Below are positions 4,335 to 54,912 of a stretch of 64,000 nt of DNA, piece by piece. The notes below the pieces were generated by a model, which was given only the letters and a program-made list of their open reading frames with translations, was not told the DNA's origin and made no database searches. Positions within the stretch are counted from its first letter, which is position 1. Every line of letters starts with the position of its first letter. The position numbers were made by a program, and so were the translations under genes. The stretch comes from a virus (Duplodnaviria; Heunggongvirae; Uroviricota; Caudoviricetes), in the IMG/VR virus record IMGVR_UViG_2879469214_000007, positions 1-64,000 of that record; one strand, 5' to 3'.

Positions 4335-4508
4335 ATGCGATTGATTGGTTTAATGTTTATCATCACGTTAGCTGTGGCTGGCATCATCTATCTGGCTCTG
4401 GCTCGTGTGGGGTTCTTCACAATAGTCGGGGGCTGGATGGAGAAGGCAACCAAGCCCTTCAAAGAGGGCGACAAGGTAAGGGAAAAATTAAAAGGAGATG
4501 GTAAGTAG
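4335..4508 (+). CDS. small membrane protein (57 aa) upstream of the SPFH gene, possible NfeD-like partner
   Basis: ATG at 4335 reads MRLIGLMFIITLAVAGIIYLALARVGFFTIVGGW... The ORF is not in the supplied track because it is under 60 aa. It has one TM helix and its stop overlaps the start of the SPFH gene. Confidence 0.35.
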   Translation: MRLIGLMFIITLAVAGIIYLALARVGFFTIVGGWMEKATKPFKEGDKVREKLKGDGK

Positions 4509-5397
4509 AATGAGTAAGTTTTCTAAAGGTGCAGTAGCAACAGGGATTGTAGCAGTATTGGTTGTAGGTGGATTCTTCGCTTTCACTACGAAGGTTAATA
4601 CAGGGAATGCGGGACTAGTAATCAATTTAAATGGTGGTTTGGAAGACAAGGTTCTGGGACAAGGATTAAAACCGGTTGCTCCTTGGAAAAAGGTTGTGGA
4701 ATATCCGATTTCAACAGAAACGGTATATATTGACGAGGAACACGGCTCGGCTCCGTTCCCAACGACCACGAATGAAGGCAAGCAAGTCCCGGTTGACGCT
4801 CGATATTCATACCACATGGATGTTAAGCGCCTACCAGATATTTATGCTAAGTTCAAAGGTGTAAGCAATACAGTTATTGAGAACGGCTGGATTAAAACCG
4901 AATTGCAAAAGACGGTTCGCTCTGTAACCTCTCAGTACACAGTATTTGAACTGAATGGAGCAAAGATTTCTGAAATCAACGGTAAGGTTCTTGAGCAATT
5001 GACTGCTGACCTAGCGAAAGATGGAATCGTTCTTGAAGACTTCTCCATTGGCGCGATTCATCCAGATGCAAAAACTCAGGAATCTATCCAAGCCAATGTA
5101 GACGCTCAACTTGCCCTGCAAAAGCTAGAAATGGAGAAAAAGCAAAAGGAAATCGAAGCTGAGAAAGCTCGCATTGAAGCCAAAGGTAAAGCTGACGCGG
5201 CTACTATCGAAGCGCAAGGTACTGCTGATGCCAATAAGTTGCTTGAGAAATCAATCACGCCGCAACTCATTCAGTTGAAAGAGCTTGATGTTCAAATGGA
5301 GATTGCTAAGAACCAAAACCTTCCACGCATTTTGATGGGCGGCAACGGTGACACAGGTAGCGCAATTCTTAACATCCCAAGTGAGTTTACAAAGTAA
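4498..5397 (+). CDS. SPFH/band-7 (prohibitin/flotillin-like) membrane protein
   Basis: An N-terminal TM segment (VATGIVAVLVVGGFFAF) is followed by a band-7 core (GNAGLVINLNGG...VYIDEEHG). The C-terminus is a coiled coil with EKKQKEIEAEKARIEAKGKADA heptads. Confidence 0.7.
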   Translation: MVSRMSKFSKGAVATGIVAVLVVGGFFAFTTKVNTGNAGLVINLNGGLEDKVLGQGLKPVAPWKKVVEYPISTETVYIDEEHGSAPFPTTTNEGKQVPVDARYSYHMDVKRLPDIYAKFKGVSNTVIENGWIKTELQKTVRSVTSQYTVFELNGAKISEINGKVLEQLTADLAKDGIVLEDFSIGAIHPDAKTQESIQANVDAQLALQKLEMEKKQKEIEAEKARIEAKGKADAATIEAQGTADANKLLEKSITPQLIQLKELDVQMEIAKNQNLPRILMGGNGDTGSAILNIPSEFTK

Positions 5398-6025: not shown

Positions 6026-6916
6026 ATGAATAATGAATTAGCTGTACGCCGCAAAGTTGGAATTGAGATGGAAGGCTATATTGAAAACTACCCCGAGGAC
6101 GTTGAGTTGGTCGGAGTGAAGATTAAGCAAGACGGCAGTTTAGATAACTGCGACTGGGATTATCTCAATGAACCATTCGGCGTTGAGCTTTGCACGGAAC
6201 CCATGACAGACATATCTCTCCTTCGTGAAGTCTGGAAAGACATGAAGCATAACAACTGGACGGTTGATGATAGAGCAGGAACTCACATCCACGTAGACGT
6301 ATCGGATTTCAGCGTGGAAGAGAAGGTTAAGCTGTTGCGCTTCGGTAAAGGAATCGAACGAATTATCTTCCTGTTCGTGGACGACTACCGTAACAATAAT
6401 GAATACTGCTATCCGCTCCATAAGGAATGGAGAAAGGTTTTCCGTGGAGATAACAAGTACGCGGATATCGACTGGAACTCCATCACAGATGACGAATTTG
6501 AGGGTGTGAACGAATACCTGTACCAGCGTTTCCGCAATCCAGACCGCTACTACTCTGACCGAGAGCAAGTTATCTGGAACGGCAAGTACCAATGGATGAA
6601 TATCTTTGGAAGCCGATATCCAACGGTTGAGTATCGTCTGTATCAAGCAGTGGAAGACGTAGAGGTTCTGATTCAACAAGCGCTCATGTCGGAAGCTATC
6701 GTAAACCTTGTGAAGAACCACAGCTTGGCACAATTGGAATACATTATCAGGGAACTCTACAAGCAGGAAACAGTTGACGCTACTGTAGAGATGTTTTTCG
6801 AGACATTGGGACTGGACTTCAAACTTGAAGTTCGCGGGGAAAGAGCACAGAAATACTTGGCTGGTAAGCTGGCGGCTAAAAATGCAGTAAGTGAAGTTGT
6901 AGAACAAGGGGCGTAA
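6026..6916 (+). CDS. amidoligase / GCS2-like carboxylate-amine ligase (glutamine-synthetase fold), paralog 1
   Basis: VGIEMEGYIEN gives an E-x-E metal/ATP motif, AGTHIHVDV gives the His pair, and TVEYRLYQAV gives the E-[FY]-R motif. All three are typical of the GCS2/YbdK and phage amidoligase family. Confidence 0.55.
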   Translation: MNNELAVRRKVGIEMEGYIENYPEDVELVGVKIKQDGSLDNCDWDYLNEPFGVELCTEPMTDISLLREVWKDMKHNNWTVDDRAGTHIHVDVSDFSVEEKVKLLRFGKGIERIIFLFVDDYRNNNEYCYPLHKEWRKVFRGDNKYADIDWNSITDDEFEGVNEYLYQRFRNPDRYYSDREQVIWNGKYQWMNIFGSRYPTVEYRLYQAVEDVEVLIQQALMSEAIVNLVKNHSLAQLEYIIRELYKQETVDATVEMFFETLGLDFKLEVRGERAQKYLAGKLAAKNAVSEVVEQGA

Positions 6917-7881
6917 TGCCCCTTTTTAACAAGGAGGGTTGCGCTGTGGCGGCGCTGTATAGAAAGTTTGGGATTGAAATGGAAGGCTACATAAACACAC
7001 ATCCAGATTATTTAGGCATCAGAGACGCTAAGGCAAAGCGAGATGGAAGTTTGCGGAACAATCATTGGCACAGAAGTATGGACGAATTTGGCGTTGAAAT
7101 AGCAACAGACCCCCTAACTGACTTCTCCAAGGTAGAGCGTATCTTCGAGAGAATGAGGGTGGCAGGATGGCATGTAGACAACCATGCTGGGACACACGTA
7201 CACATCGAGATAGCCGACTTTTCGGAGCAAGATAAGGCAAAGCTACTTCGATTCTGCAAAGGCATAGAACGTATTATATTCATGTTCGTGAAGGATTATC
7301 GTAATGGTAATCACTACTGCAAGAAATTATCGGATGATTTCCGAAAGATATTCAAGCCGAAAGAGAATAAGCTTCGACGACGAAGTTCTTCTGGTCAAAT
7401 ATTATACCAGACGGTTATGGAATCCAGACGCTATACTGATGTTCCAAGGGACGGATTGATTGGGGCATTGCAACGGAACGGTTTTAGTGTAGACAACAGC
7501 AAATACTACTGGCTCAACGTATATGGCAGTCGTTACAAAACAGCGGAGTTTCGTATATTCCATGCTGTAGAGAGCCTTGAGGATATCCGATTCTTTGTTA
7601 CAATGGCACATAACATCGTAGAGCTTGTAAAGCATGTATCCGTAGAACAGTTGGAGTTCATTATTCTCAGCCTATATGAATCGAGGGATGCACAGACAAT
7701 GGCGGCAAACTTTCTTCAATTGCTGGGAATGGATGGAGAGTTTAATATTATATTTAATGGTCCAAAGGCTTGCGCCTACATTGAGGAAAAGCTCAAGAAA
7801 AAGCATCTTAAGCGTAAGCAAGAAGCTAGTGAGCTTATGGAGCGAGTGAATCGGGAACGAATCGCATCATTGAGGGCTTAA
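6916..7881 (+). CDS. amidoligase / GCS2-like carboxylate-amine ligase, paralog 2
   Basis: It shares all the motifs of the upstream gene (GIEMEGYIN, AGTHVHIEI, KLLRFCKGIERIIFMFVKDYRNGNHYC, TAEFRIFHAVE). It is a tandem paralog whose start overlaps the previous stop. Confidence 0.55.
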   Translation: MPLFNKEGCAVAALYRKFGIEMEGYINTHPDYLGIRDAKAKRDGSLRNNHWHRSMDEFGVEIATDPLTDFSKVERIFERMRVAGWHVDNHAGTHVHIEIADFSEQDKAKLLRFCKGIERIIFMFVKDYRNGNHYCKKLSDDFRKIFKPKENKLRRRSSSGQILYQTVMESRRYTDVPRDGLIGALQRNGFSVDNSKYYWLNVYGSRYKTAEFRIFHAVESLEDIRFFVTMAHNIVELVKHVSVEQLEFIILSLYESRDAQTMAANFLQLLGMDGEFNIIFNGPKACAYIEEKLKKKHLKRKQEASELMERVNRERIASLRA

Positions 7882-8932: not shown

Positions 8933-9150
8933 GAAAGCCAAGGGGAATAAAGCTTAATGGGCATCGTTCCATGGATATGTGCCCCGGTTGCTACGCGTTT
9001 AACTGCGATTCAATGGCTATGTCGCAAAGATTCCAAGACATGATAAGAAAGAGGATGAAGCTTGGCTTATGTCCTGCTTGTGGGGCAAAACCGGTTCAAA
9101 AAAATGGGATGGATATTTGCAAATGCAAAGGGAAGAGGGGAATTAGATGA
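8929..9150 (+). CDS. Cys-rich small protein (putative zinc ribbon)
   Basis: The sequence carries CPGCYAFNCDS...CPACG...CKCKG. Its start and stop overlap the neighbouring genes. Confidence 0.4.
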   Translation: MRKPRGIKLNGHRSMDMCPGCYAFNCDSMAMSQRFQDMIRKRMKLGLCPACGAKPVQKNGMDICKCKGKRGIR

Positions 9151-9602
9151 TTACAATTGTTGAGGGAAACTTGCTCGATGCAAAGGAAAACATTATCGGA
9201 CATCAGGTGAATTGCCAAGGAGTTATGGGAAGCGGTGTGGCTAAAGCTATTCGTGCGAAATACCCGGTTGTCTATGAGAGATACGTAAATCATTGTAATG
9301 CAATGTCACCTCAGCTATTGCTTGGGGATATGCAAATCATTAAATTGGGCGTTGATAAATATGTGGCGAACATTTATGGTCAGCTAACATACGGACGAGA
9401 CAAAAATGTTTTGTACACCAGTTATAGTGCCCTAACAGAATCACTTATTAAGCTCAAGCATCAGGCAAGAAGATACGAAATGTCGGTAGCACTGCCATAC
9501 GGAATCGGTTGCGGCTTTGGTAATGGCGACTGGGATAATGAAGTGTATCCGATGCTGAAATGTCTTTTCTCCGATTGGGATTTAACGCTATATAAATTAT
9601 AA
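9147..9602 (+). CDS. macro domain protein (ADP-ribose binding / ADP-ribosyl hydrolase)
   Basis: MITIVEGNLLDAKENIIGHQVNCQGVMGSGVAKAIRAKYP matches the macro domain N-terminal signature (ITxxxGDI...NxxNxxLxxGGGV). Confidence 0.7.
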   Translation: MITIVEGNLLDAKENIIGHQVNCQGVMGSGVAKAIRAKYPVVYERYVNHCNAMSPQLLLGDMQIIKLGVDKYVANIYGQLTYGRDKNVLYTSYSALTESLIKLKHQARRYEMSVALPYGIGCGFGNGDWDNEVYPMLKCLFSDWDLTLYKL

Positions 9603-9669: not shown

Positions 9670-10002
9670 ATGGAGATGTCAAGAGCGGAATTTGCGGAAA
9701 AGAAGAGTATTAGAGATTATCTGTTTTCAACCTTATTGCCGACCGGAATGCACATGTCTGACCTCTGTTTTAAAGAAGGGAATGCCTATAGATTCTCAAG
9801 AGGATATGGACCATGGAATGACGACTATTACTTGCTATCATCTGATACTAAGCCAGTGGAGAAGTATCGTTTACTGGCGAAGCTCGATAAGGAACTATCG
9901 GATGGACGGTCACATGAACGAAAGCTTGAAACCGAAGAAATGGATATCAAGATTAGCCGATTAATCAAAAATTATACTGCTAATGAACTTTCAATGGAGT
10001 AG
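9670..10002 (+). CDS. hypothetical protein
   Basis: 110-aa ORF with SD GAAAGGAAGGG upstream. Confidence 0.35.
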   Translation: MEMSRAEFAEKKSIRDYLFSTLLPTGMHMSDLCFKEGNAYRFSRGYGPWNDDYYLLSSDTKPVEKYRLLAKLDKELSDGRSHERKLETEEMDIKISRLIKNYTANELSME

Positions 10003-10249
10003 GTGGAAAATGATGCTGTTTCTAACATTGTATCTCTTGGTGGGAATCGTTCTTCTGACTCTGACCCGTGGCTACCTTTATATCCCGCCACCATCAAGAT
10101 TCGTAGAAATCAAGGAAAAGCCGGGAACCTATATAATCAAAGAATATATTCCAATGCCAACTTGGATATGGTGGATTCTCCTGACTATATTATGGCTACC
10201 TATTATCATTCTTGTTATCTGGCAAGTGAGTAAAGAGTTCAAGCTATAA
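9983..10249 (+). CDS. small integral membrane protein
   Basis: Two hydrophobic helices (LFLTLYLLVGIVLLTL and WIWWILLTILWLPIIILVIW). The true start may be the internal MML codon. Confidence 0.35.
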   Translation: MNFQWSRWKMMLFLTLYLLVGIVLLTLTRGYLYIPPPSRFVEIKEKPGTYIIKEYIPMPTWIWWILLTILWLPIIILVIWQVSKEFKL

Positions 10250-10281
10250 ATTAAAATCACAGGGAAGCGGGTAAGGGAACA

Positions 10282-10506
10282 ATGGAAGTTGGGGAATTGC
10301 TCAAGAAAGTTAAAGACGTAGTGGTAAAAATCGAAAATCAGTATAACCCGGAATACGGAGCCTATACAGAGGAACGCTCCGAAGGGAACTCAATGGATGT
10401 GTTCCAAGATGGTCTAACATCAGGATATAACGAAGCGCTCTACGATATTGGTAAAATGCTGGGCTTGAAGCTGGAGACACCTGAAACACCAGAGATGGAT
10501 TCTTAA
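10282..10506 (+). CDS. hypothetical protein
   Basis: 74-aa acidic ORF. Confidence 0.35.
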   Translation: MEVGELLKKVKDVVVKIENQYNPEYGAYTEERSEGNSMDVFQDGLTSGYNEALYDIGKMLGLKLETPETPEMDS

Positions 10507-10687
10507 AGTCGCACATTATAATATAATTAAACGATAACATGGGTAATTTTAGTCGAAAAACGCGTCGATTTAAAGCAATTTTAATGACCAGTTACCCATT
10601 TAACATAAATAAAATCGCTTAAAACAAAAACTGCGTATAGTTATAGTTATACGCATATGGAAGAGAAATGGAAAGCAGGGAGATAGC

Positions 10688-11424: not shown

Positions 11425-11994
11425 ATGAAGATAATCAAATTTTGGACACCAAAGGGTTTCAACGGATTCATGAGCAACTTCTATGAAGCGCCGTTCATGT
11501 TGAATGGTGTGATTTACCCAACAAATGAACACTTCTTCCAGTCTCAAAAGTTCACTGGAACCAGAGCAGAGCAGTACATTTTGATGCTTCCAACGGCGGC
11601 TGAAACAGCTAAGGAAGGAAAGAGTAGAGCACTCCCACTTCGTAAGGACTGGGAGGAAGTCAAAGAAACAGTAATGTTGACTGGATTGAGAGCAAAGTTC
11701 GCACAGAACGAAGAGATTCGCAAGAAACTTCTTAATACTGGCGATGCTGTATTGATTGAAAACTCTCCATATGATTACTATTGGGGATGCGGTAGAGATG
11801 GCTCAGGAAAGAATCGCCTTGGCATACTTCTTATGCAAATCAGAAAAGAGCTTCTTATAGAGAAAGATACCCGGTATATCAATGATGCATTTAATGAAAT
11901 GAGAAGCCTTGGTTTTACCGCAAAAGAAATTATCGAAACATTGGACGAAGATGAAAACATTAATCACAAATTGTTAAAATCATTAACATTATAA
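11425..11994 (+). CDS. NADAR (YbiA/DUF1768) family protein
   Basis: FWTPKGFNGFMSNFYEAPFMLNGVIYPTNEHFFQSQKF together with the DYYWGCG core matches the NADAR/YbiA-like family. Confidence 0.65.
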   Translation: MKIIKFWTPKGFNGFMSNFYEAPFMLNGVIYPTNEHFFQSQKFTGTRAEQYILMLPTAAETAKEGKSRALPLRKDWEEVKETVMLTGLRAKFAQNEEIRKKLLNTGDAVLIENSPYDYYWGCGRDGSGKNRLGILLMQIRKELLIEKDTRYINDAFNEMRSLGFTAKEIIETLDEDENINHKLLKSLTL

Positions 11995-12025
11995 TATAAT
12001 TAAATTATAAAAGGGGATATCATCT

Positions 12026-12889
12026 ATGATTTACTTGAATGGTACAAAATTAAACTTTGACGTTTTCCCAAATGGTGAAACAAAGGTAGATACTAAACAG
12101 GTTCTTTCTGTAGTGAAAGATACCGGATATAACAATGTGGGATTCAAGTTTACAGATGATTCGGATTTGATTAAGCTTCTGTTCCTTAAGAGCTACTTGG
12201 ACACTACGGATGCACGCAATACCAAAATCACTTTGCGTATTCTCTATATGCCTTATAGCCGCATGGACCGAATCGAAGGGCAGTCTGCATTTACCCTGAA
12301 ATACATCTCTAACTTCATTAACAGTCTAAAATTCTACGAGGTAGAGGTTGTTGAGCCGCATTCGGATGTCTCGCTGGCACTTCTGGATAACAGCCATGCA
12401 GATTATGTGACCCACTTCTTGCTGGAATCTGTTATGAGCGAGATTAGCTTTAACCCTGATGAAGATTATCTTTTCTTTCCTGATGCTGGGGCACAGAAAC
12501 GATACCACGACCTTAAGGGCTATAAGAGTGCAGTTGGAAATAAGAATCGGGACTTTCAAACGGGAAGAATCACGAGCCTTGAAGTAAATGGGAATATTGA
12601 AGATTTGTACGGGAAAAAAGTAATAATTTTGGATGACCTATGCTCATACGGAGGAACGTTTAAAATGAGCGCTGGAAAACTCAAAGACCTTGGAGCAACT
12701 GAGGTATATCTACTTGTTGCCCATGCAGAAGAAGCTATTTTTGCTGGTGGTTTGTTCGATGCGAAGTATGAACCCAATGAAGAAAGCTACAAGGAGACGC
12801 TTATAAGCAAAGTGTTTACTACCAATAGCATTATCGAAGATAACTATGGTCTTGATAATAGACTCCGTATCTACGACATCATCAACTAG
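12026..12889 (+). CDS. ribose-phosphate pyrophosphokinase homolog (Prs-like; candidate ADPR-PP synthetase Adps of NARP1)
   Basis: FPNGETKVD aligns with Prs FSDGEIQVQ. ITLRILYMPYSRMDR aligns with the Prs catalytic loop IPYFGYARQDR. KKVIILDDLCSYGGT is the PRPP-binding loop. The protein is divergent from housekeeping Prs. Confidence 0.6.
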   Translation: MIYLNGTKLNFDVFPNGETKVDTKQVLSVVKDTGYNNVGFKFTDDSDLIKLLFLKSYLDTTDARNTKITLRILYMPYSRMDRIEGQSAFTLKYISNFINSLKFYEVEVVEPHSDVSLALLDNSHADYVTHFLLESVMSEISFNPDEDYLFFPDAGAQKRYHDLKGYKSAVGNKNRDFQTGRITSLEVNGNIEDLYGKKVIILDDLCSYGGTFKMSAGKLKDLGATEVYLLVAHAEEAIFAGGLFDAKYEPNEESYKETLISKVFTTNSIIEDNYGLDNRLRIYDIIN

Positions 12890-12900
12890 GGGAGTGCAGG

Positions 12901-13104
12901 ATGGCATTCTATACTTGTCCTAAATGCGGAAGTAATAAGGTGGAGAACGTGCCACTGAACACGGAGAACGGATACCCGACCGATGGAACATACCAGGGTT
13001 TATGCCTAGATTGCTGGTACGAAGAACCCTATGCCTACAACGAAAAAGGCTGGTATTACCTTATTAGTGAAAATCAAAATCTAAAATTAAATTTAAAGGG
13101 GTAA
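12901..13104 (+). CDS. small zinc-ribbon protein
   Basis: The sequence is CPKCGSN...CLDCW. It sits between the Prs-like and NAMPT-like genes. Confidence 0.35.
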   Translation: MAFYTCPKCGSNKVENVPLNTENGYPTDGTYQGLCLDCWYEEPYAYNEKGWYYLISENQNLKLNLKG

Positions 13105-13110
13105 TTATAT

Positions 13111-14826
13111 ATGAAAACAAAAACTATCTATCCAGCTAGCTTGATTGCAGACTTCTATAAGGTTGCTCACCGTATGCAGTATCCCGATGGAACTGAGTTC
13201 GTCTATAGCAACTGGACACCACGCTCCACCTACATGAAGGGCGCTAAGGGAGTAATCGCATTCGGATTGCAAGCTTTCACAAAAAAATATCTGATTGAAT
13301 ACTTTAACACTCACTTTTTCAGCCGCACAAAAGAGGAAGTTGTTGCTGAGTATGTCCACTACATTAAGCACACGCTGTTTGTAGAAGAAGTAGACGCGAC
13401 ACACATCGCTGATTTGCACGAGCTTGGGTATCTGCCACTTCACATTAAAGCCGTCAAAGAAGGAACATTCGTGCCGCTGAAAGTGCCAATGGCAACGGTA
13501 GTAAATACGAATGCTAAATTCTTTTGGGTCACAAATTATATTGAAACTATTTTCTCTTCGGAGAACTGGTTGCCTTCTACGAGCGCAACAATCGCTCATG
13601 AGTATAAAAAGCTTATGACAAAATACGCTAAAGAAACGGGCGGAGATTTGGGGGATATTCAGTTCCAAGGACATGACTTCTCGATGCGTGGAATGGTTCT
13701 GGAAGCCGCTATTCTGAGTGGAGCTGGTCATCTTACATCCTTCTATGGAACAGACACCATTCCAGCTATTCCGTTCCTTGAGGAATACTATAATGCTGAT
13801 GTAACGAAGGGAATTGTGGGTACATCCGTTAATGCGACTGAGCACAGTGTTATGTGCGCCGGAGGACAAGAGAATGAATATGACACCTATGAGCGCCTTA
13901 TTACAAAGGTACACCCAACAGGCATCCTCTCCATCGTATCTGACACTTGGGATTTGTGGAATGTGCTGACGGTGACACTTGCTAAGCTTAAGGGTTCAAT
14001 CATTACTCGTGACGGTAAAGTTGTTGTTCGCCCGGATTCCGGCAATCCTGTTGAAATCCTCTGTGGTAAGAAGTTCGAGGTTATTGATTCACCTGACGAA
14101 GCATATGACGCTTTCAGAGACATTATCCATGATACTGCTTCTGAGGTTACTGGGGAGCACCAAACGGGGCTAGAGAGCTATACTATCCGCTACAAGGCTG
14201 GTGATAAATACTACAAGGCAAAATTCAGCGTTGATTACAACCGATATGACAAACGCTACTATTATGTTGACGGTATTAAGCTTGTGTCCAATGTTGAATA
14301 TACGCCTGAGCCATCTGACCTTGGAGTAATTGAAATCCTATGGAACATCTTTGGCGGCACAATCAATGAAAAGGGCTATAAGGTTCTTGACCCGCATATT
14401 GGGGCTATCTACGGTGATTCCATCACTCTTGAGCGTGCAGAAGCAATCTGCAAAGGTCTAAAGGAGAAAGGGTTCTGCTCCACAAATGTCGTGTTCGGTA
14501 TTGGCTCCTTTACTTATCAATACCAAACGCGTGATACCTTTGGATTTGCAATGAAGGCTACTCATGTCGTGATTAACGGAGAAGAACGCAATATTCAAAA
14601 AGACCCTGCCACTGATACAAACAAAGGCAAAAAATCGGCTACAGGTCGCCTAATTGTTTATCGTGATGCTGAGACAGGGGAGATTACACTTGCTGATGGG
14701 CTTACTATCGACCAGCAAGAGCTTTACAGTGAAGTCGATATCCTTGAGGATGTATTTATTGACGGCAAACTGGTTCGTGACGAAACACTGGAAGAAATCC
14801 GTGAGCGAATCCAATCACTAATCTAA
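13111..14826 (+). CDS. nicotinamide phosphoribosyltransferase homolog (NAMPT/NadV-like; candidate Namat of NARP1)
   Basis: The N-terminus (YPASLIADFYKVAHRMQYPDGTEFVYSNWTPRS) and internal GTDTIPAIPFLEEYY match the NAMPT family. At 571 aa it is about 80 aa longer than bacterial NadV, suggesting an insertion. Confidence 0.7.
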   Translation: MKTKTIYPASLIADFYKVAHRMQYPDGTEFVYSNWTPRSTYMKGAKGVIAFGLQAFTKKYLIEYFNTHFFSRTKEEVVAEYVHYIKHTLFVEEVDATHIADLHELGYLPLHIKAVKEGTFVPLKVPMATVVNTNAKFFWVTNYIETIFSSENWLPSTSATIAHEYKKLMTKYAKETGGDLGDIQFQGHDFSMRGMVLEAAILSGAGHLTSFYGTDTIPAIPFLEEYYNADVTKGIVGTSVNATEHSVMCAGGQENEYDTYERLITKVHPTGILSIVSDTWDLWNVLTVTLAKLKGSIITRDGKVVVRPDSGNPVEILCGKKFEVIDSPDEAYDAFRDIIHDTASEVTGEHQTGLESYTIRYKAGDKYYKAKFSVDYNRYDKRYYYVDGIKLVSNVEYTPEPSDLGVIEILWNIFGGTINEKGYKVLDPHIGAIYGDSITLERAEAICKGLKEKGFCSTNVVFGIGSFTYQYQTRDTFGFAMKATHVVINGEERNIQKDPATDTNKGKKSATGRLIVYRDAETGEITLADGLTIDQQELYSEVDILEDVFIDGKLVRDETLEEIRERIQSLI

Positions 14827-14844
14827 ATATATAATTAGATTTTA

Positions 14845-14870
14845 AGGCGCACTTCCGGGTGCGTCTTTTT
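14845..14870 (+). terminator. rho-independent terminator after the NAMPT-like gene
   Basis: GGCGCAC-TTCCGG-GTGCGTC stem-loop followed by TTTTT. Confidence 0.6.
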
Positions 14871-14908
14871 CTATATTGAAATTAAGTGAAATATATTGCA
14901 CTTTTTAT

Positions 14909-14943
14909 TTGACAATTAGATAAGCCGCTGTTATATTATAATT
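14909..14943 (+). promoter_or_regulatory. sigma-A-like promoter (TTGACA-17-TATATTATAAT)
   Basis: TTGACA at 14909, a 17-nt spacer, then TATATT/TATAAT. Confidence 0.5.
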
Positions 14944-15190: not shown

Positions 15191-15352
15191 GAGCTACATA
15201 TTAATTGAGTTCGACAACAGATACAGTATTAATCCTAAATGGGTAGCTAATAAGACGAAAACATATGTTGAGTCATTAGAAGATGATATCGAAAACGTGA
15301 AAGTTACTGTTCTTGAAAATCCAATCATTATCAATAAATAAGGAGCGTGTTG

Positions 15353-16288
15353 AAAATGCCAGCAAACGTTGAAGAGATGTTCTCAGTTAGAGTTGCCCCT
15401 TGGCATGGATTAGGGAAGATTGTAAAGGAAGCACCTGATAGTGCGGCGGCAATCAAGTTGGCGGGACTCGATTGGGATGTTATCCAAAGTCCTGTGTACG
15501 TGGATGACCAGAAGGTGGACAACTACTTTGCAAACAAACGCTCAGATAATAATGAAGTTCTTGGGATTGTGACCGGACGCTATTCTATCGTACAAAACAG
15601 CGAAGCATTCGCCTTTACCGATAGCCTTATCAAAGAGGGTGAAGTGAAGTACGAAACTGCTGGAAGCCTTAAAGACGGTCGCCAAGTTTGGATGCTGGCT
15701 AAGATGGAACAGGAATACAGCATTCTTGGGGATAAGTTCGACCCATATATGTGCTTCATCAACTCTCACGATGGAACCGGAGCGGTTCGGGTGCTTATGA
15801 CACCTATTCGGGTAGTTTGCCAGAACACATTGAATGCGGCTCTTGCCGGAGCAAAACGCGCTTGGAGTACCACACACGTAGGCAACATGGCGGACAAGCT
15901 TGAGGATGCTAAAAACACCCTGATGTACGCCGGACATTACATGAACAAACTGGAAGAAGATGCTCACCGCCTTACAGACATCAAACTTACGGCGGAGAAA
16001 TATGGCGAGATAATCAATGAGATTCTTCCGATTACAGTTAAGACTTCCGAACGTCAAGCTAAAGTAATTCAATTGAGACGAGACGCTATCCTTCACGCAA
16101 TGAAGGCAGACGACATCCGCAAGTTCGCAGGGACAGGATGGGGATTCATGAATGCAATCAGCGACTACACAACACATGCTGAGCCGGTTCGTAAGACCGA
16201 AACATTCAGAGACAATCAATTTTCGCGAGTTGTTTCAGGAGATAAACTGTTTGACCTTGCCTATACAGTGCTGAATAAAGTAGCATAA
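15353..16288 (+). CDS. DUF932 (phage/plasmid-like TIGR03299) family protein
   Basis: MPANVEEMFSVRVAPWHGLGKIV...AIKLAGLDWDV is the DUF932 N-terminal hallmark. The start is taken at ATG 15353 rather than TTG 15347. Confidence 0.55.
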   Translation, partial: KMPANVEEMFSVRVAPWHGLGKIVKEAPDSAAAIKLAGLDWDVIQSPVYVDDQKVDNYFANKRSDNNEVLGIVTGRYSIVQNSEAFAFTDSLIKEGEVKYETAGSLKDGRQVWMLAKMEQEYSILGDKFDPYMCFINSHDGTGAVRVLMTPIRVVCQNTLNAALAGAKRAWSTTHVGNMADKLEDAKNTLMYAGHYMNKLEEDAHRLTDIKLTAEKYGEIINEILPITVKTSERQAKVIQLRRDAILHAMKADDIRKFAGTGWGFMNAISDYTTHAEPVRKTETFRDNQFSRVVSGDKLFDLAYTVLNKVA

Positions 16289-26817: not shown

Positions 26818-27165
26818 TTATAGGATGTCTTTCTCTCGTAGCTCTTGTTTCAGACTAGCAAGGTCAATCGCAAGTCCATAAACCATTTGTAGCCCCTCAA
26901 CTGCTTTTGCGGCTTTGATTTGTAAGAATCGGCTAACCCAAAAGTTAATGAACATGTGAAGCATTGAGATTAATAAGGAAGCTCCCATTGCTTCAAGTAT
27001 GCCAATCTCCTTTGTGCTAGGCATTAGCCATATAAAGAAGAAGTTATACACGAATGCCAGAGACAAACCAATCAATGCTACAATAGCTAGAAATATAATT
27101 ATGTCTACTAGAAAAATACCTAGTTTCCTAATTCGTTTCATAGTTACCCTCCTATAAGAATACAA
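26818..27165 (-). CDS. integral membrane protein
   Basis: Three predicted TM helices. The start overlaps the upstream gene. Confidence 0.4.
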   Translation of the reverse strand: MYSYRRVTMKRIRKLGIFLVDIIIFLAIVALIGLSLAFVYNFFFIWLMPSTKEIGILEAMGASLLISMLHMFINFWVSRFLQIKAAKAVEGLQMVYGLAIDLASLKQELREKDIL

Positions 27166-28237
27166 CCTTTGATTCGTTGAATATAATATTAGATTGTTCG
27201 TCGATATTAATAACTGAGTATGCTCTTGTCCACTTCGTTCTTGAGAACTTAGAGCCGTGATGATAGTCCATGTCGTAACATAAGCAACCTGTTTCCATTA
27301 GCAACACCTCGCCGCTAACAATACTACCTGCTCTATGTGTGTGACCAATTACGCAAGCTCGATGCCAAACATTTTCGATGATTGAGAAATACTCGCTTGT
27401 ATTTTGAACTGTCTTCAAGTTTGCATTGGTATAGTTATCAGGATGTGCAAAGATAGTATCAAACAACTTAACCCACCAGCTACCTACAACATGTACATTT
27501 GCTAGCTTTTGTTTCCCCAATACTTCTCCATTAACAAGAATTTGTAAGATATCTTGAGGGAATAAGAACTGTAGGTCTGTTGGAATAACTGCTTTAATAA
27601 AGGATTTAAGTCGGCGCTCGTGATTGCCTTCCGTGATAACTACATCCTTAAATCGTTTTGCGATAAATTCAACAAGCTCTCTGCCTTCACTTAGCTCTCG
27701 GCGCATTGCCACTTCTTTATCTTTTGCAAATTTTGATACTGCAAAAAGGTCTAGTAAGTCACCGTTAATCACAACGATATCGGCATCCCTATGTTCATTA
27801 ACAATGCTTGTTACTGCATCATACATAGTAAATGGAACATGGAGGTCAGATAGATAAAGAATTTTTGCCTTTTTACCCTTATATTTTCGAGCAATCAAAT
27901 CTGAAATTGCTTCCCTGCGAAGGTCGCCTTCTTCATGACGGAACAAAGATTTATCTTTGCTGAACGGGAAAGTAAATTCTTCGCTAACCTCCCCTCCAAA
28001 ATACTCTTCTTCAATTCCTAATTTACTTTTCGAAGTGCTGTTCCCTAAAATCTCATTAGCACTAATAGTCCCACCAATAGTCCCAGTGTTTTTCACAGAA
28101 TTTTTCCCTCTGTCTCCATTCGCCGCTAGACGACGCTTCACTTGTCGCTCTGTTAAACCAAGTCTTTCTGCAATTTCCTTACGTGAAAATCCTTTTTCTT
28201 TTAGTTGCAAACATGCATGTTTTTCATTTAGGTTCAT
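27152..28237 (-). CDS. HTH-containing calcineurin-like metallophosphoesterase
   Basis: N-terminal HTH (GFSRKEIAERLGLTERQVKRRL). Metallophosphatase motifs are D-x-H (ILYLSDLHVPF), GDLLD, GNHE and GHTH. Confidence 0.65.
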   Translation of the reverse strand: MNLNEKHACLQLKEKGFSRKEIAERLGLTERQVKRRLAANGDRGKNSVKNTGTIGGTISANEILGNSTSKSKLGIEEEYFGGEVSEEFTFPFSKDKSLFRHEEGDLRREAISDLIARKYKGKKAKILYLSDLHVPFTMYDAVTSIVNEHRDADIVVINGDLLDLFAVSKFAKDKEVAMRRELSEGRELVEFIAKRFKDVVITEGNHERRLKSFIKAVIPTDLQFLFPQDILQILVNGEVLGKQKLANVHVVGSWWVKLFDTIFAHPDNYTNANLKTVQNTSEYFSIIENVWHRACVIGHTHRAGSIVSGEVLLMETGCLCYDMDYHHGSKFSRTKWTRAYSVINIDEQSNIIFNESKVVFL

Positions 28238-34681: not shown

Positions 34682-35554
34682 TTAGATTGCTAGATTACTT
34701 AACGATTCCCTTATAAGGGGCAATTTTTCTTTCCCAGCCACATATCCTCTAGTAAAACATTCTTCTAATCTTTCAAAATCAAGAATATTGACATCATCTA
34801 AAGGAAGTCTTAGCGTCATATCGTGATATCTTGCATCTATGTCAACATTTCGCTTTGTAACGATATCTACTGTTTGTCTAAGGATAGAGGGAATGCCTTC
34901 TAGCTTATAGTTGCTCTCATAGCTCGACAGGGCAATCGTAACCACTCTATCAGCTCCCATTGCGAAAGCTATATCAGAAGGAAGGTTGTTTGTCAGTCCT
35001 CCATCTACAAGCGTTCTGTAGTCAAGCTGTTTAGGCAAAAATACTGCTGGCAAGGAACATGAAGCCCTAACGATTTCACTGAGGTTTAAATCTCCCCAGC
35101 TATTCCATTCTGTATAGGCGTACTCAATCTTGCTCCAATCGTATTGCGTTTCATTTGTAAAGATTAACTGACTGCCATCAATCAAATTCGTCGTAGCGAT
35201 ACCCAATGGTTTCTTAATCTCACCTATTCGCTTACCGTCAAATATTTGATTAAGAGATTTTTCGAGTCGTTTCCCTTTGAACAATCCTTGAATCATCTTT
35301 TCCTTACTGGTCATCCCGGCAATAATGTGAACGAAAGCGATATCCAAGACATTTCTTGTTACCTTGAATTTCTCAAAAGCTTTTATGGGTTCATATCCCA
35401 AAGCTAAGAGCGATGCGGCTATTGAGCCACCGCTTGTTCCGGCGTATATCTCCGGTACAATGCCGTCTTCCAGTAAAGCTTGTACGACTCCCAATTGTGC
35501 GGCTGACCTTACTCCGCCGCCACCCAAGGCTATACCAAGCTTCAAATGTGTCAC
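34682..35554 (-). CDS. patatin-like phospholipase
   Basis: GIALGGGGVRSAAQLG is the oxyanion GGGxR motif. GTSGGS is the GxSxG nucleophile. A DGG catalytic Asp is also present. Confidence 0.7.
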   Translation of the reverse strand: MTHLKLGIALGGGGVRSAAQLGVVQALLEDGIVPEIYAGTSGGSIAASLLALGYEPIKAFEKFKVTRNVLDIAFVHIIAGMTSKEKMIQGLFKGKRLEKSLNQIFDGKRIGEIKKPLGIATTNLIDGSQLIFTNETQYDWSKIEYAYTEWNSWGDLNLSEIVRASCSLPAVFLPKQLDYRTLVDGGLTNNLPSDIAFAMGADRVVTIALSSYESNYKLEGIPSILRQTVDIVTKRNVDIDARYHDMTLRLPLDDVNILDFERLEECFTRGYVAGKEKLPLIRESLSNLAI

Positions 35555-46829: not shown

Positions 46830-47477
46830 TTATAGAACCTCTGCCGCAATTTGCGACCAGCTCTCAAGCTTGCTATGCACTTCTGGCTTCATTAGGTCAG
46901 TGATTGATAACCAAAAACCCTCAAGCTGTTCTGGTTCATTCACTTCGACAGTTACATCTTCCTCGATGTCGATTACAACCAGTACACCGATATGAACCTT
47001 ACTTACTTCTTGAGAATCGTCATTAATAAGACCGATAATCTCTGTTTCTCTTGCTCCCGGTCCAATCTCAAGTTCCTCGCTCAACTCACGCTCAAGATTG
47101 TCAGTTAGAAGCGTGTAAAAAGAGAAGTCTTCAATCAGTGCTTTTTCTTCTTCCGGCATGTCATTCATATGACCACCTACGCCGATAGACAGCTTATCGT
47201 GCAGACGAGTTTCGCCGCCGCCAGCCAAGCGTTTATAAACGAAGATTTTGTCACCGCGTCTGATTACTGCATAAGGAATTGGCTGTTTAAAATCTACATC
47301 CACTTCCGCATCCCCTCGACGCATCGTACCGTAATGGTTCTCCATGTTATTGATGATTTCCATTCCTTGGCTTACGCTCTCTCCGTCATTCAAAAGCGTT
47401 CCTTGGAAGGCAAGCTTTTCGTTTTTGAATAGCTCGTTACGTGGAACCACCACAATAATTTCATCCATTTTGTTCAC
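46830..47477 (-). CDS. hypothetical protein
   Basis: 215-aa acidic ORF, preceded by a conserved promoter element. Confidence 0.4.
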   Translation of the reverse strand: MNKMDEIIVVVPRNELFKNEKLAFQGTLLNDGESVSQGMEIINNMENHYGTMRRGDAEVDVDFKQPIPYAVIRRGDKIFVYKRLAGGGETRLHDKLSIGVGGHMNDMPEEEKALIEDFSFYTLLTDNLERELSEELEIGPGARETEIIGLINDDSQEVSKVHIGVLVVIDIEEDVTVEVNEPEQLEGFWLSITDLMKPEVHSKLESWSQIAAEVL

Positions 47478-51666: not shown

Positions 51667-51960
51667 TTACTTGATGATTTCCCAGTCTTCCGCCAAAACA
51701 TCGGCTTGAGACGCTATCCATCCCGGTTGCCATTGCCCTGCCGCTGTCCACATTGCGATATAAGGTTGTGAATCTAACGCAACACCTTCTCCAATGTGCT
51801 TACTGGTACGACCATTTACAACCCCTGCTTCAAGATACAGAGCTGGCATAAGAGCAACCCACATGCCCTTACCATTCCATCCTTGACGAGCAACTTTATT
51901 CCCAGCTTTTAAAGCTTCAATTGCTTTCCCAAAATCCAAATTTCTGCCCTCCTTATCCAA
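51667..51960 (-). CDS. DUF2829 family protein (Tad2-like, candidate anti-Thoeris gcADPR sponge)
   Basis: LDFGKAIEALKAGNKVARQGWNGKGMWVAL...DVLAEDWEII matches the DUF2829 hallmarks. The anti-Thoeris protein Tad2 is the reference member of DUF2829. Confidence 0.55.
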   Translation of the reverse strand: MDKEGRNLDFGKAIEALKAGNKVARQGWNGKGMWVALMPALYLEAGVVNGRTSKHIGEGVALDSQPYIAMWTAAGQWQPGWIASQADVLAEDWEIIK

Positions 51961-53577: not shown

Positions 53578-54363
53578 TTATACGAATGATACCAATAGCT
53601 GGTCAACATGCTCTCTTGAGAACAAATTATCAATCGTGTCTTGATGAACTTGCCCTTCTCCATCCATCGTGAAGAATCGGGAGCCTTTCTTATCCTGATA
53701 AAACTTCATCAGTTCCTTAAGCGGCTCGAAATCATCACCAAGGCAGGACGGGTTTAGCTCATACGAAATAGCTTTAATCTTGCCCTGCTCAATCTTGTTT
53801 GCCATACCAAGGAATGCCTGATATTCTCCACCTTCGATATCCATTTTAATGAAGTCAATAACCTCTTCATGCGCCAAGTGTTCATCAATACTAACAGTAT
53901 CAACACTGTAGCTTGCTAGATTGTCAAAAGGAGCAAGGGTTAAAAACGATTTTGCCATTGTAGGATTCGTACCGCCGCTACCGCGAAATCTTTCTGGCTC
54001 ATAGAAGGTGATTTTCCCTTCCTCGGAGCTGACAGCCTTATTATAAATTTCCGTATTCCCAAGATAGTTCATGTGGATGTTCTGCATAAGAAAACGGAAG
54101 TTCTTTTCCCCAGCTTCATATCCGTATGTCTTCTTGGAATACTTGCCTAACAGGACTGTTGTGTATCCAATATTTGCTCCGATATCTACCGTCACCATGC
54201 TCTTGTCGATAGCCTTCATGACAAAGTTTGTAAAGGCTATATCAAAGCATCCGTCGATTAATAGGTCTGGTGTAAGGCTAATATCATCAGATGGTGCATA
54301 TAGCTTCCCTCTCCATATTGGAGAAATAAGAACTCGACCATCGCCAACATAAGTTCCGTGCAA
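53578..54363 (-). CDS. FkbM-family SAM-dependent methyltransferase
   Basis: VTVDIGANIGYTTVLL and FIKMDIEGGE match Methyltransf_21 (FkbM). Confidence 0.55.
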   Translation of the reverse strand: MHGTYVGDGRVLISPIWRGKLYAPSDDISLTPDLLIDGCFDIAFTNFVMKAIDKSMVTVDIGANIGYTTVLLGKYSKKTYGYEAGEKNFRFLMQNIHMNYLGNTEIYNKAVSSEEGKITFYEPERFRGSGGTNPTMAKSFLTLAPFDNLASYSVDTVSIDEHLAHEEVIDFIKMDIEGGEYQAFLGMANKIEQGKIKAISYELNPSCLGDDFEPLKELMKFYQDKKGSRFFTMDGEGQVHQDTIDNLFSREHVDQLLVSFV

Positions 54364-54393: not shown

Positions 54394-54912
54394 TTACTTA
54401 TAATTCCTTGGGTCTATCACAATCATCTTTCTGTTCTTCTCGCGAGCATACTCAACTGTGTGCCCTGTGCCGGAGCGACCCAAGTCTCCGTTCCAGACTG
54501 CCATGACTAAGCCAGATTCATCCACCATTGCCTTGTCTCTCACAATCATTTTCCATGCGGCGTATCCCGGTTCACACACATTGACAACCTTATTGCATCT
54601 TTCCATGATGCTGAAATATCGCTTCTTGGATTCCTCGAACCACTTTACCTCTTGCCCCTCAAAAGGAGCGAATAGCTCAAGCGTGATATCAAGACCGACT
54701 TCATCACGGAAATATAGCACTTCTTCTGCCGCCCATGTATCAACCCCTAATGCACCACCAGCAATGAATCTGGTGTATCCTCCATGTAGGATTGCATTAA
54801 GGATTTCAGCATTTAATTGGTCTTTTACATATTTGGCAATTGGATTGTTTTCATCGTAGCCGCCAAGCTTGTTTGGACGATGACCTGTGAAACAAATCGT
54901 TTTATCAATCAA
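54394..54912 (-). CDS. YpsA/DUF1273 (SLOG superfamily) protein
   Basis: KTICFTGHRPNKL is the TGHRP signature. The glycine-rich segment IAGGALGVDTWAAE is typical of SLOG/YpsA. Confidence 0.55.
   Translation of the reverse strand: MIDKTICFTGHRPNKLGGYDENNPIAKYVKDQLNAEILNAILHGGYTRFIAGGALGVDTWAAEEVLYFRDEVGLDITLELFAPFEGQEVKWFEESKKRYFSIMERCNKVVNVCEPGYAAWKMIVRDKAMVDESGLVMAVWNGDLGRSGTGHTVEYAREKNRKMIVIDPRNYK

Follow-up and report, generated by a model that had tools for sequence, protein, structure and literature searches.

A 64,000-nucleotide stretch of the IMG/VR virus record IMGVR_UViG_2879469214_000007 (the window, 64 kb of a genome of ~161 kb, on which all coordinates are given) carries at positions 12026 to 14877 what is very probably a genuine operon of NAD+ reconstitution pathway 1 (NARP1). 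Its two enzymes most likely restore NAD+ from what bacterial NAD+-destroying defences leave behind. NARP1 has been known since 2024 (bioRxiv 10.1101/2024.02.11.579819) and is a common phage system, reported in 4.3% of sequenced phages; crystal structures and variants have already been described (PMC12774641; bioRxiv 10.64898/2026.01.28.702374). In the proposed mechanism, a host NADase defence (candidate triggers are Thoeris ThsA, DSR1/2, SIR2-HerA, SEFIR, Kongming, SPARSA and the like) would split NAD+ into ADP-ribose (ADPR) plus nicotinamide. Adps, with ATP, would add pyrophosphate at ADPR's ribose 1'' position to give ADPR pyrophosphate (ADPR-PP), and Namat would swap the pyrophosphate of ADPR-PP for nicotinamide, giving NAD+ directly. 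A first-pass annotation of this DNA had proposed a NARP1-type pair of Adps and Namat, and the proposal is supported here: both proteins are close homologs of those from three systems validated by biochemistry or genetics (Bacillus phages SpbetaL1 and FADO, and Paenibacillus foliorum) and keep the catalytic and clamp residues. We assign the locus to NARP1 because every defining feature that is testable in sequence was found. What we infer from these features is that both enzymes are active as proposed, that they prefer ADPR and ADPR-PP to ribose 5-phosphate and phosphoribosyl pyrophosphate (PRPP), and that the operon counters host defence.

The protein resembling ribose-phosphate pyrophosphokinase (Prs) is assigned to the Adps clade and not to housekeeping Prs, a placement made from pairwise identity, bit scores and model cut-offs and not from a tree with cellular Prs. 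BLASTP against the validated Adps proteins gave 56% identity and 284 bits for P. foliorum, 45.5% identity and 226 bits for SpbetaL1, and 45% identity and 226 bits for FADO, whereas the highest score of any solved Prs structure was 51 bits, and the Prs of B. subtilis reached 27.7 bits. Profile searches matched PHROG 619 (1.7e-66) and TIGR01251 (4.7e-22), the latter with 78.3 bits and thus under its cut-off of 113, and all Prs equivalog models scored between 30 and 66 bits against cut-offs of 296 to 536. The earlier description of a divergent Prs homolog is accurate in this sense, and the three validated Adps proteins likewise fall under every NCBIfam Prs cut-off, with 89.5 to 106 bits on TIGR01251; the window protein lies farther from the Prs models than they do (78 vs 89-106 bits). 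The protein contains both motifs named in the first-pass annotation, YMPYSRMDR (aa 74-82) and ILDDLCSYGGT (aa 201-211), together with EPHSD (aa 110-114) and a G-N-K173-N-R-D-F segment in which K173 aligns with K162 of SpbetaL1 Adps (G-H-K-Q-R-N-F). A K162A substitution impaired the SpbetaL1 enzyme, which pyrophosphorylates ADPR in vitro and gave no measurable product in a Prs-type control reaction (bioRxiv 10.1101/2024.02.11.579819). We regard this residue mapping as valid because the positions found by regular expression reproduce the published numbering (K162 and, in Namat, G390).

Sequence and structural modelling together identify the NAMPT-like protein as Namat. It matched Pfam NAPRTase (7.9e-42), NAMPT_N (3.9e-8) and NF006629 (3.8e-167), and a phmmer search of the PDB placed the SpbetaL1 Namat crystal structures first (PDB IDs: 9W5W and 9W5X, described in PMC12774641, with an E-value of 2e-192 and 643 bits), ahead of Haemophilus ducreyi NadV (HdNadV, 472 bits) and human NAMPT (~247 bits). 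An AlphaFold2 model built with 50 homologs (pLDDT 89.4, pTM 0.88) gave the same ranking in Foldseek, with the Namat crystals on top (TM 0.95-0.96 on target, 52% identity), followed by HdNadV (42% identity) and human NAMPT (28%). Identity to the SpbetaL1 and FADO Namat proteins is 60-68%. We checked the 20 residues listed as contacting nicotinamide or NAD+ (PMC12774641), together with the catalytic His, and found the set identical to that of SpbetaL1 except at A362 (S437 here) and at the clamp-loop residue R40 (Y41 here). The conserved residues are D14, Y16, F190, S191, R193, D215, A242, H245, R307, D309, G435, D436, G465, S466, F467, Y471, T473, R474 and D475. The catalytic core is thereby intact, F190, D215, R307 and H245 corresponding to F189, D215, R306 and the catalytic His of SpbetaL1 Namat.

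Namat is further marked by a selectivity-clamp helix (SCH) with the specific consensus GSX-phi1-X-phi2-X-phi3-TRD, aromatic at positions 3 and 7 (PMC12774641). The window sequence GSFTYQYQTRD fits this consensus, with F467 and Y471 as the aromatics; the validated proteins have GSFTYQYNTRD (SpbetaL1 and FADO) and GSYTYQYNTRD (P. foliorum). The accompanying clamp loop, SCL, contributes a stacking residue, and Arg, Lys or Tyr was reported at its third position in Namat proteins (PMC12774641). The window loop following WTPR reads S-T-Y41-M and thus has Tyr at this place, compared with Arg in SpbetaL1 and Lys-Tyr in FADO.

The arrangement of the genes agrees with that given in the first-pass annotation, both in the coordinates of the three open reading frames (ORFs) and in the presence of only a small Zn-ribbon ORF between the Prs-like and NAMPT-like genes (Table 1). 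The three ORFs are co-directional, with intergenic gaps of 11 and 6 nt and a Shine-Dalgarno-like GGGG(A/T) 7-9 nt ahead of each; adps and namat are separated by the 204-nt Zn-ribbon ORF alone, and a single terminator follows namat. This intrinsic terminator, previously placed at 14845-14870, is real: its hairpin has a 10-bp stem with 5 G-C pairs and a 4-nt loop, continues into TTTTTCTATATT, and folds with a minimum free energy of -16.5 kcal/mol (z = -3.8), which none of 200 shuffles equalled. The promoter-like site just upstream of adps is a weak candidate, since such sites are no more numerous across the region than in shuffled sequence. Of 84 related loci, 80 taken from a scan of species-representative genomes and four from phages, 81 have Namat next to Adps; a published survey put this adjacency at 97% (bioRxiv 10.1101/2024.02.11.579819).

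Table 1. Features of the putative NARP1 operon and its immediate surroundings (window coordinates).
Feature	Position	Strand	Details
adps (putative ADP-ribose pyrophosphokinase; Prs family, Adps clade)	12026..12889	+	287 aa
Zn-ribbon ORF between adps and namat	12901..13104	+	67 aa; Cys at 6, 9, 35 and 38 (CxxC...CxxC)
namat (putative nicotinamide ADP-ribose transferase; NAMPT fold), long form	13111..14826	+	571 aa
Namat SCH signature GSFTYQYQTRD	14503..14535	+	aa 465-475; motif search and alignment
Insertion mini-domain in Namat, 83 aa	14071..14319	+	aa 321-403
Intrinsic terminator	14844..14877	+	hairpin 14844-14867 and U-tract
Promoter-like site TTGTTA-18-TATAAT	11971..12000	+	overlaps 3' end of NADAR gene; just upstream of adps; weak
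Near-consensus promoter-like site TTGACA-17-TATATT with TG	14909-14937		downstream of terminator
YbiA-family NADAR gene (putative ADP-ribosyl N-glycosidase)	11425..11994	+	Pfam NADAR 1.7e-36
Macro-domain gene, Adpp/Poa1p-like	9147..9602	+	Pfam Macro 2.7e-8

Several points weigh against the assignment to NARP1. The identity of Adps to the validated enzymes is only 45-56%, and for this reason its substrate specificity is given as a prediction. The three validated Namat proteins compared are all short forms and the window Namat is a long form; A362 of SpbetaL1 is replaced by Ser; and the SCL alignment is gapped over a loop of variable length, which makes the assignment of Y41 alignment-dependent. 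The window Namat also passes NF006629, a model for NadV/'nicotinate phosphoribosyltransferase', with 556.7 bits against a cut-off of 405, a result that does not discriminate Namat from NadV because the three validated Namat proteins pass as well (582-594 bits). Namat enzymes moreover keep activity from PRPP to nicotinamide mononucleotide (NMN) in vitro (PMC12774641; bioRxiv 10.1101/2024.02.11.579819), and by analogy the window enzyme might also make some NMN. Lastly, the scan for partner genes covered 64 of ~161 kb, apart from the ORFs within positions 1-4.3 kb and some small ORFs.

The competing explanation is classical salvage, in which the Prs-like protein would make PRPP, the NAMPT-like protein would make NMN and an NMN adenylyltransferase would finish NAD+, as in NARP2; we consider this highly improbable, and equally so a variant in which PRPP would feed nucleotide synthesis beside the phage ribonucleotide reductase (RNR), ThyA and DHFR. 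Although both proteins carry Prs and NAMPT domains in Pfam and NCBIfam, and are annotated accordingly in public records, the Prs-like protein lies even farther from the Prs models than the validated Adps proteins do, and no activity of the Prs type was seen in vitro with the SpbetaL1 enzyme, to which it is 45.5% identical. The capacity of Namat enzymes for NMN synthesis from PRPP speaks for salvage, but the window protein retains the complete adenine-clamp signature by which Namat differs from Nampt. Nucleotide-metabolism genes are abundant in the window, yet Pfam scans of nearly all its coding-strand ORFs of at least 60 aa found no NMNAT, NadR, NadM-Nudix, PnuC, CTP_transf_like or Nudix gene. 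In E. coli phage Bas63, which carries one of the closest known NARP1 systems, anti-defence activity persisted in a pncC nadR double mutant, a host without NMN-to-NAD+ salvage.

Cellular Prs with Nampt/NadV, NARP2 (Nampt with NMNAT-Nudix, for example in KVP40) and NARP3 (a PnuC-like transporter with a NadR-like bifunctional enzyme; PMC13464706) share protein superfamilies (a Prs-like PRTase fold and the NAMPT fold) and the NAD+ end product with the NARP1 operon. Unlike the cellular pair, the window Prs-like protein lies under the Prs cut-offs and its Namat has an adenine clamp absent from Nampt; within the scanned ORFs it has neither the NMNAT partner that defines NARP2 nor the PnuC and NadR of NARP3. 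A 215-aa ORF at 46830-47477 (-) contains a Nudix-box-like stretch, LERELSEELEIG, and has no Pfam match at E <= 0.01.

Sequence comparison with experimentally studied NARP1 systems covered SpbetaL1, FADO and P. foliorum. The window operon is like those of SpbetaL1 and FADO in its gene order (adps then namat), its closing terminator and its identical YMPYSRMDR motif, active-site Lys, Namat catalytic core and SCH signature, and unlike them in its 67-aa Zn-ribbon gene and its 83-aa Namat insert. Deletion of NARP1 sensitised phage FADO to DSR2 (bioRxiv 10.1101/2024.02.11.579819). The P. foliorum system (pfAdps/pfNamat, PMC12774641; our locus L017) has the closest validated Adps, shows the same motifs and comes from the likely host genus; it regenerated NAD+ in vitro and neutralised SPARSA (PMC12774641). 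It differs in lying in a bacterial genome assembly, with a short-form Namat of 495 aa and no intervening ORF, whereas the window copy lies on a ~161-kb phage-like contig.

The first-pass annotation had read the extra ~80 aa of the NAMPT homolog, relative to NadV, as a sign of altered substrate use. The length is correct (571 aa against 491-498 aa), but that interpretation does not stand: the whole difference is a single insertion and, because it is missing from all three validated Namat proteins compared, the extra residues are not evidence for the use of ADPR-PP. In the model the insert forms one helix and three long beta-strands; it sits after the RPDSGxP catalytic strand, in place of a ~11-residue loop, DPxSDNExER, of the short forms. 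Insert-bearing Namat was found by tblastn in five of the 84 related loci (L003, L004, L019, L051 and L061). Most copies in bacterial genomes are short, the long form is common among the closest homologs on phage-size contigs of ~160 kb, and the two forms are interleaved on a tree of the core. Since short-form two-gene systems work without them, the insert and the Zn-ribbon gene are presumably add-ons that the core chemistry does not need.

Two related contigs of ~160 kb have the Zn-ribbon ORF at the same place between adps and namat (67 aa with 99% identity and 58 aa with 90% identity), and both retain all four Cys. Against the more distant of these relatives we calculated a dS of 1.06 and a dN of 0.05 (dN/dS 0.05), and its identity of 90% exceeds that of Adps (80%), Namat (81%), NADAR (80%) and Macro (78%). 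These values point to a real gene under strong purifying selection and restricted to this lineage. Searches of Pfam, NCBIfam and PHROG gave no family match, tblastn against phages gave no match, and a search of 5.8e9 proteins returned the protein's own cluster alone; an exhaustive HMMER search found one distant 43-aa homolog (P0132), in an unrelated context. The NCBI annotation of RPHH01000009.1, a public contig that encodes the same Namat, omits the Zn-ribbon gene and calls an antisense ORF, which together are probably a mis-annotation. The antisense ORF in that annotation runs opposite namat and encodes 208 aa (window 13105-13914 (-); 9995-10621 in locus L005).

The slot between adps and namat takes inserts repeatedly: Adpp, a Macro protein, occupies it in Vibrio phages, RyDEP in mycobacteriophage DyoEdafos and two YorP-like ORFs in Kirov. 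The window operon is like the RyDEP operon of DyoEdafos in having an accessory gene inserted within NARP1 (bioRxiv 10.64898/2026.05.28.727677), and unlike it in that the inserted ORF has neither a RyR/R12 domain nor any Pfam match. Because two of these inserts, Adpp and RyDEP, proved to be functional extensions of NARP1, the Zn-ribbon ORF is by analogy a reasonable, if unproven, candidate accessory factor. We nevertheless consider it unlikely that its product works as part of this NARP1 variant, for example as a regulator or adaptor of Adps or Namat or as a small inhibitor of a host NADase, and is no mere passenger. Its constraint is tighter than that of its neighbours (90% vs 80-81% identity, with the low dN/dS), and its close spacing and own Shine-Dalgarno sequence imply co-expression, but the validated NARP1 systems all function without it, it has no homolog of known function, and P0132 does not stand beside an NAD-related gene. 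The sharing of the slot can likewise be read either way, its occupants in different phages being unrelated to one another. Small 'moron' ORFs are frequent insertions between the genes of phages, and the Zn-ribbon ORF may be such a passenger.

Upstream of the operon, a terminator-free gap of 31 nt separates the NADAR gene from adps, and the two may be co-transcribed. The NADAR product matches E. coli YbiA (PDB ID: 2b3w, 4.3e-36) and has a C-terminal tail of ~45 aa that is missing from a 146-aa ortholog in one of the related contigs (L088). A NADAR gene lies within 6 kb of Adps in four of the 84 other loci (L010, L012, L037 and L077), always downstream of Namat. The Macro gene lies on the same strand as adps, 2.4 kb and five ORFs upstream. 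Its product matches Poa1p (PDB IDs: 6lfq and 6lft, 2e-5) and aligns over its full length with gp178 of Vibrio phage BBMuffin (32% identity, pairwise E-value 2e-19), which is located between Adps and Namat in the arrangement named NARP1-AP. We therefore regard it as a candidate Adpp/Poa1p-like ADPR-1''-phosphate phosphatase. In NARP1-AP, Adpp turns ADPR-1''-phosphate from aRES NADases into ADPR; the arrangement was described for 15% of phage NARP1 loci, with location within two genes as the criterion (bioRxiv 10.64898/2026.01.28.702374). The window thus resembles NARP1-AP, as found in Vibrio phage Gary and BBMuffin, in that a Poa1p-like homolog of the Macro protein is encoded on the same strand near NARP1, but its Macro gene lies outside that distance and the slot within the operon holds the unrelated Zn-ribbon ORF.

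We speculated that the region from 9.1 to 14.9 kb forms a dispersed island resembling NARP1-AP, a single ADPR-scavenging and NAD+-rebuilding module that would extend NARP1 and not replace it as an explanation. On the whole this is plausible but less likely than not. The same holds for its two additional steps: the Macro protein might convert ADPR-1''-phosphate from aRES-type RES NADases to ADPR, a tentative assignment, and NADAR might release ADPR from ADP-ribosylated guanine or from soluble ADPR derivatives and so feed Adps and Namat, which is no less tentative. The relationship of the Macro protein to BBMuffin gp178, and to yeast Poa1p as the reference ADPR-1''-phosphate phosphatase, favours such a module, as does the frequency of NARP1-AP among phage loci, but the gene stands beyond the two-gene limit of NARP1-AP. 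Macro homologs are direct neighbours of the Adps gene in Vibrio phages BBMuffin and K460, whereas their counterparts in FADO, Kirov, Tsamsa and vB_BcoS-136 lie tens of kb from NARP1, and for this reason the linkage is not general. The order Macro...exonuclease-NADAR-Adps-Zn-Namat...DUF932 is kept in three related ~160-kb contigs (L087 and L088 among them), although synteny among such close relatives may reflect shared descent alone. NADAR recurs near NARP1, though in only four of the 84 other loci; NADAR-NadV neighbourhoods were noted in phages in 2022 (PMC9503650), and YbiA-family NADAR proteins strip ADPR off guanine in DNA in vitro (PMC11125620). That an accessory enzyme can supply ADPR to NARP1 has a precedent in RyDEP (bioRxiv 10.64898/2026.05.28.727677). 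Against this, NADAR and Macro proteins have well-supported independent roles in countering DarT and in removing ADPR-derived signals.

Two genes farther from the NARP1 operon may also be related to NAD+ or ADPR. A 97-aa ORF at 51667-51960 (-), between the NrdI/RNR genes and a primase gene, matches Tad2 (Thoeris anti-defence 2; PF11195, 1e-25); the putative Tad2-like gene would be a second, independent Thoeris counter-measure in the same phage and is consistent with selection from NAD+/ADPR-based defences. A YpsA/SLOG-family protein is encoded at 54394-54912 (-), beside the DnaB helicase gene (PF06908, 2.9e-25), and predictions in the literature give SLOG domains a role in processing NAD+/ADPR derivatives. 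Together these two predictions suggest that the phage invests heavily against NAD+/ADPR-based immunity. An FkbM-type methyltransferase gene (53578-54363 (-)) lies beside the YpsA/SLOG gene.

As NARP1 is an established phage counter-defence, another copy leaves the general picture unchanged. The window adds an apparently unrepresented ~160-kb phage lineage that layers NARP1 with an Adpp-like Macro protein, NADAR and a Tad2-like sponge. What remains of interest is the long-form Namat insert, absent from the validated proteins compared, and the strongly constrained Zn-ribbon gene, accessory genes in the same slot (Adpp and RyDEP) having twice proved to extend the pathway. It is conceivable, if rather improbable, that a small Paenibacillus-associated clade of ~160-kb phages has an elaborated NARP1 to which the Zn-ribbon protein, the 83-aa insert or both add a new function; regulation, coupling of Adps to Namat and direct inhibition of a host NADase could be such functions, each a speculative suggestion. 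If this were true, the adjacent NADAR and the nearby Macro protein would widen the range of ADPR derivatives recyclable into NAD+.

Two contigs encode the Namat protein, namely RPHH01000009.1 (160,979 bp, assembly GCA_003833245.1) and a Logan contig of 160,840 bp. Its closest relatives, with 96% and 80% identity, are on contigs of 159,910 and 161,800 bp, the first of which is labelled Paenibacillus illinoisensis; no near-identical DNA record was present among 50,697 phage genomes. The window encodes replication and nucleotide-metabolism proteins (DNA polymerase, the large and small RNR subunits, NrdI, primase, DnaB and RecA) as well as a Sak annealing protein, ThyA, DHFR, guanylate kinase and PhoH, and several of its proteins match best those of the 160-170-kb Bacillus siphoviruses vB_BcoS-136, Kirov and Tsamsa. 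Although the window holds no structural genes, we infer from this that the genome belongs to a large Paenibacillus phage, or to a phage-like replicon at the least; Paenibacillus is probably the host genus.

Several other genes of the window are recorded here. Downstream of NARP1, a DUF932 gene (PHROG 1221, 15347-16288 (+)), whose position is kept in three related contigs, begins a new transcription unit behind the near-consensus promoter-like site of Table 1. Tandem Amidoligase_2 (PF12224) genes at 6026-6916 and 6916-7881 (+) are conserved in L087 and L088 and are preceded by an SPFH/Band-7 gene (4498-5397). In the segment 29586-32867 (-), a sugar-nucleotidyltransferase gene (PF00483, 8e-44) precedes the genes of two group-1 glycosyltransferases, which also touch a 'GT4-conflict' model; the segment is a possible module for glycosylating DNA or a surface. 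Unusual cargo for a phage is found in a patatin-like phospholipase (34682-35554 (-), PF01734, 6e-32) and in an N-terminal helix-turn-helix domain fused to a calcineurin-like metallophosphoesterase (27152-28237 (-)).

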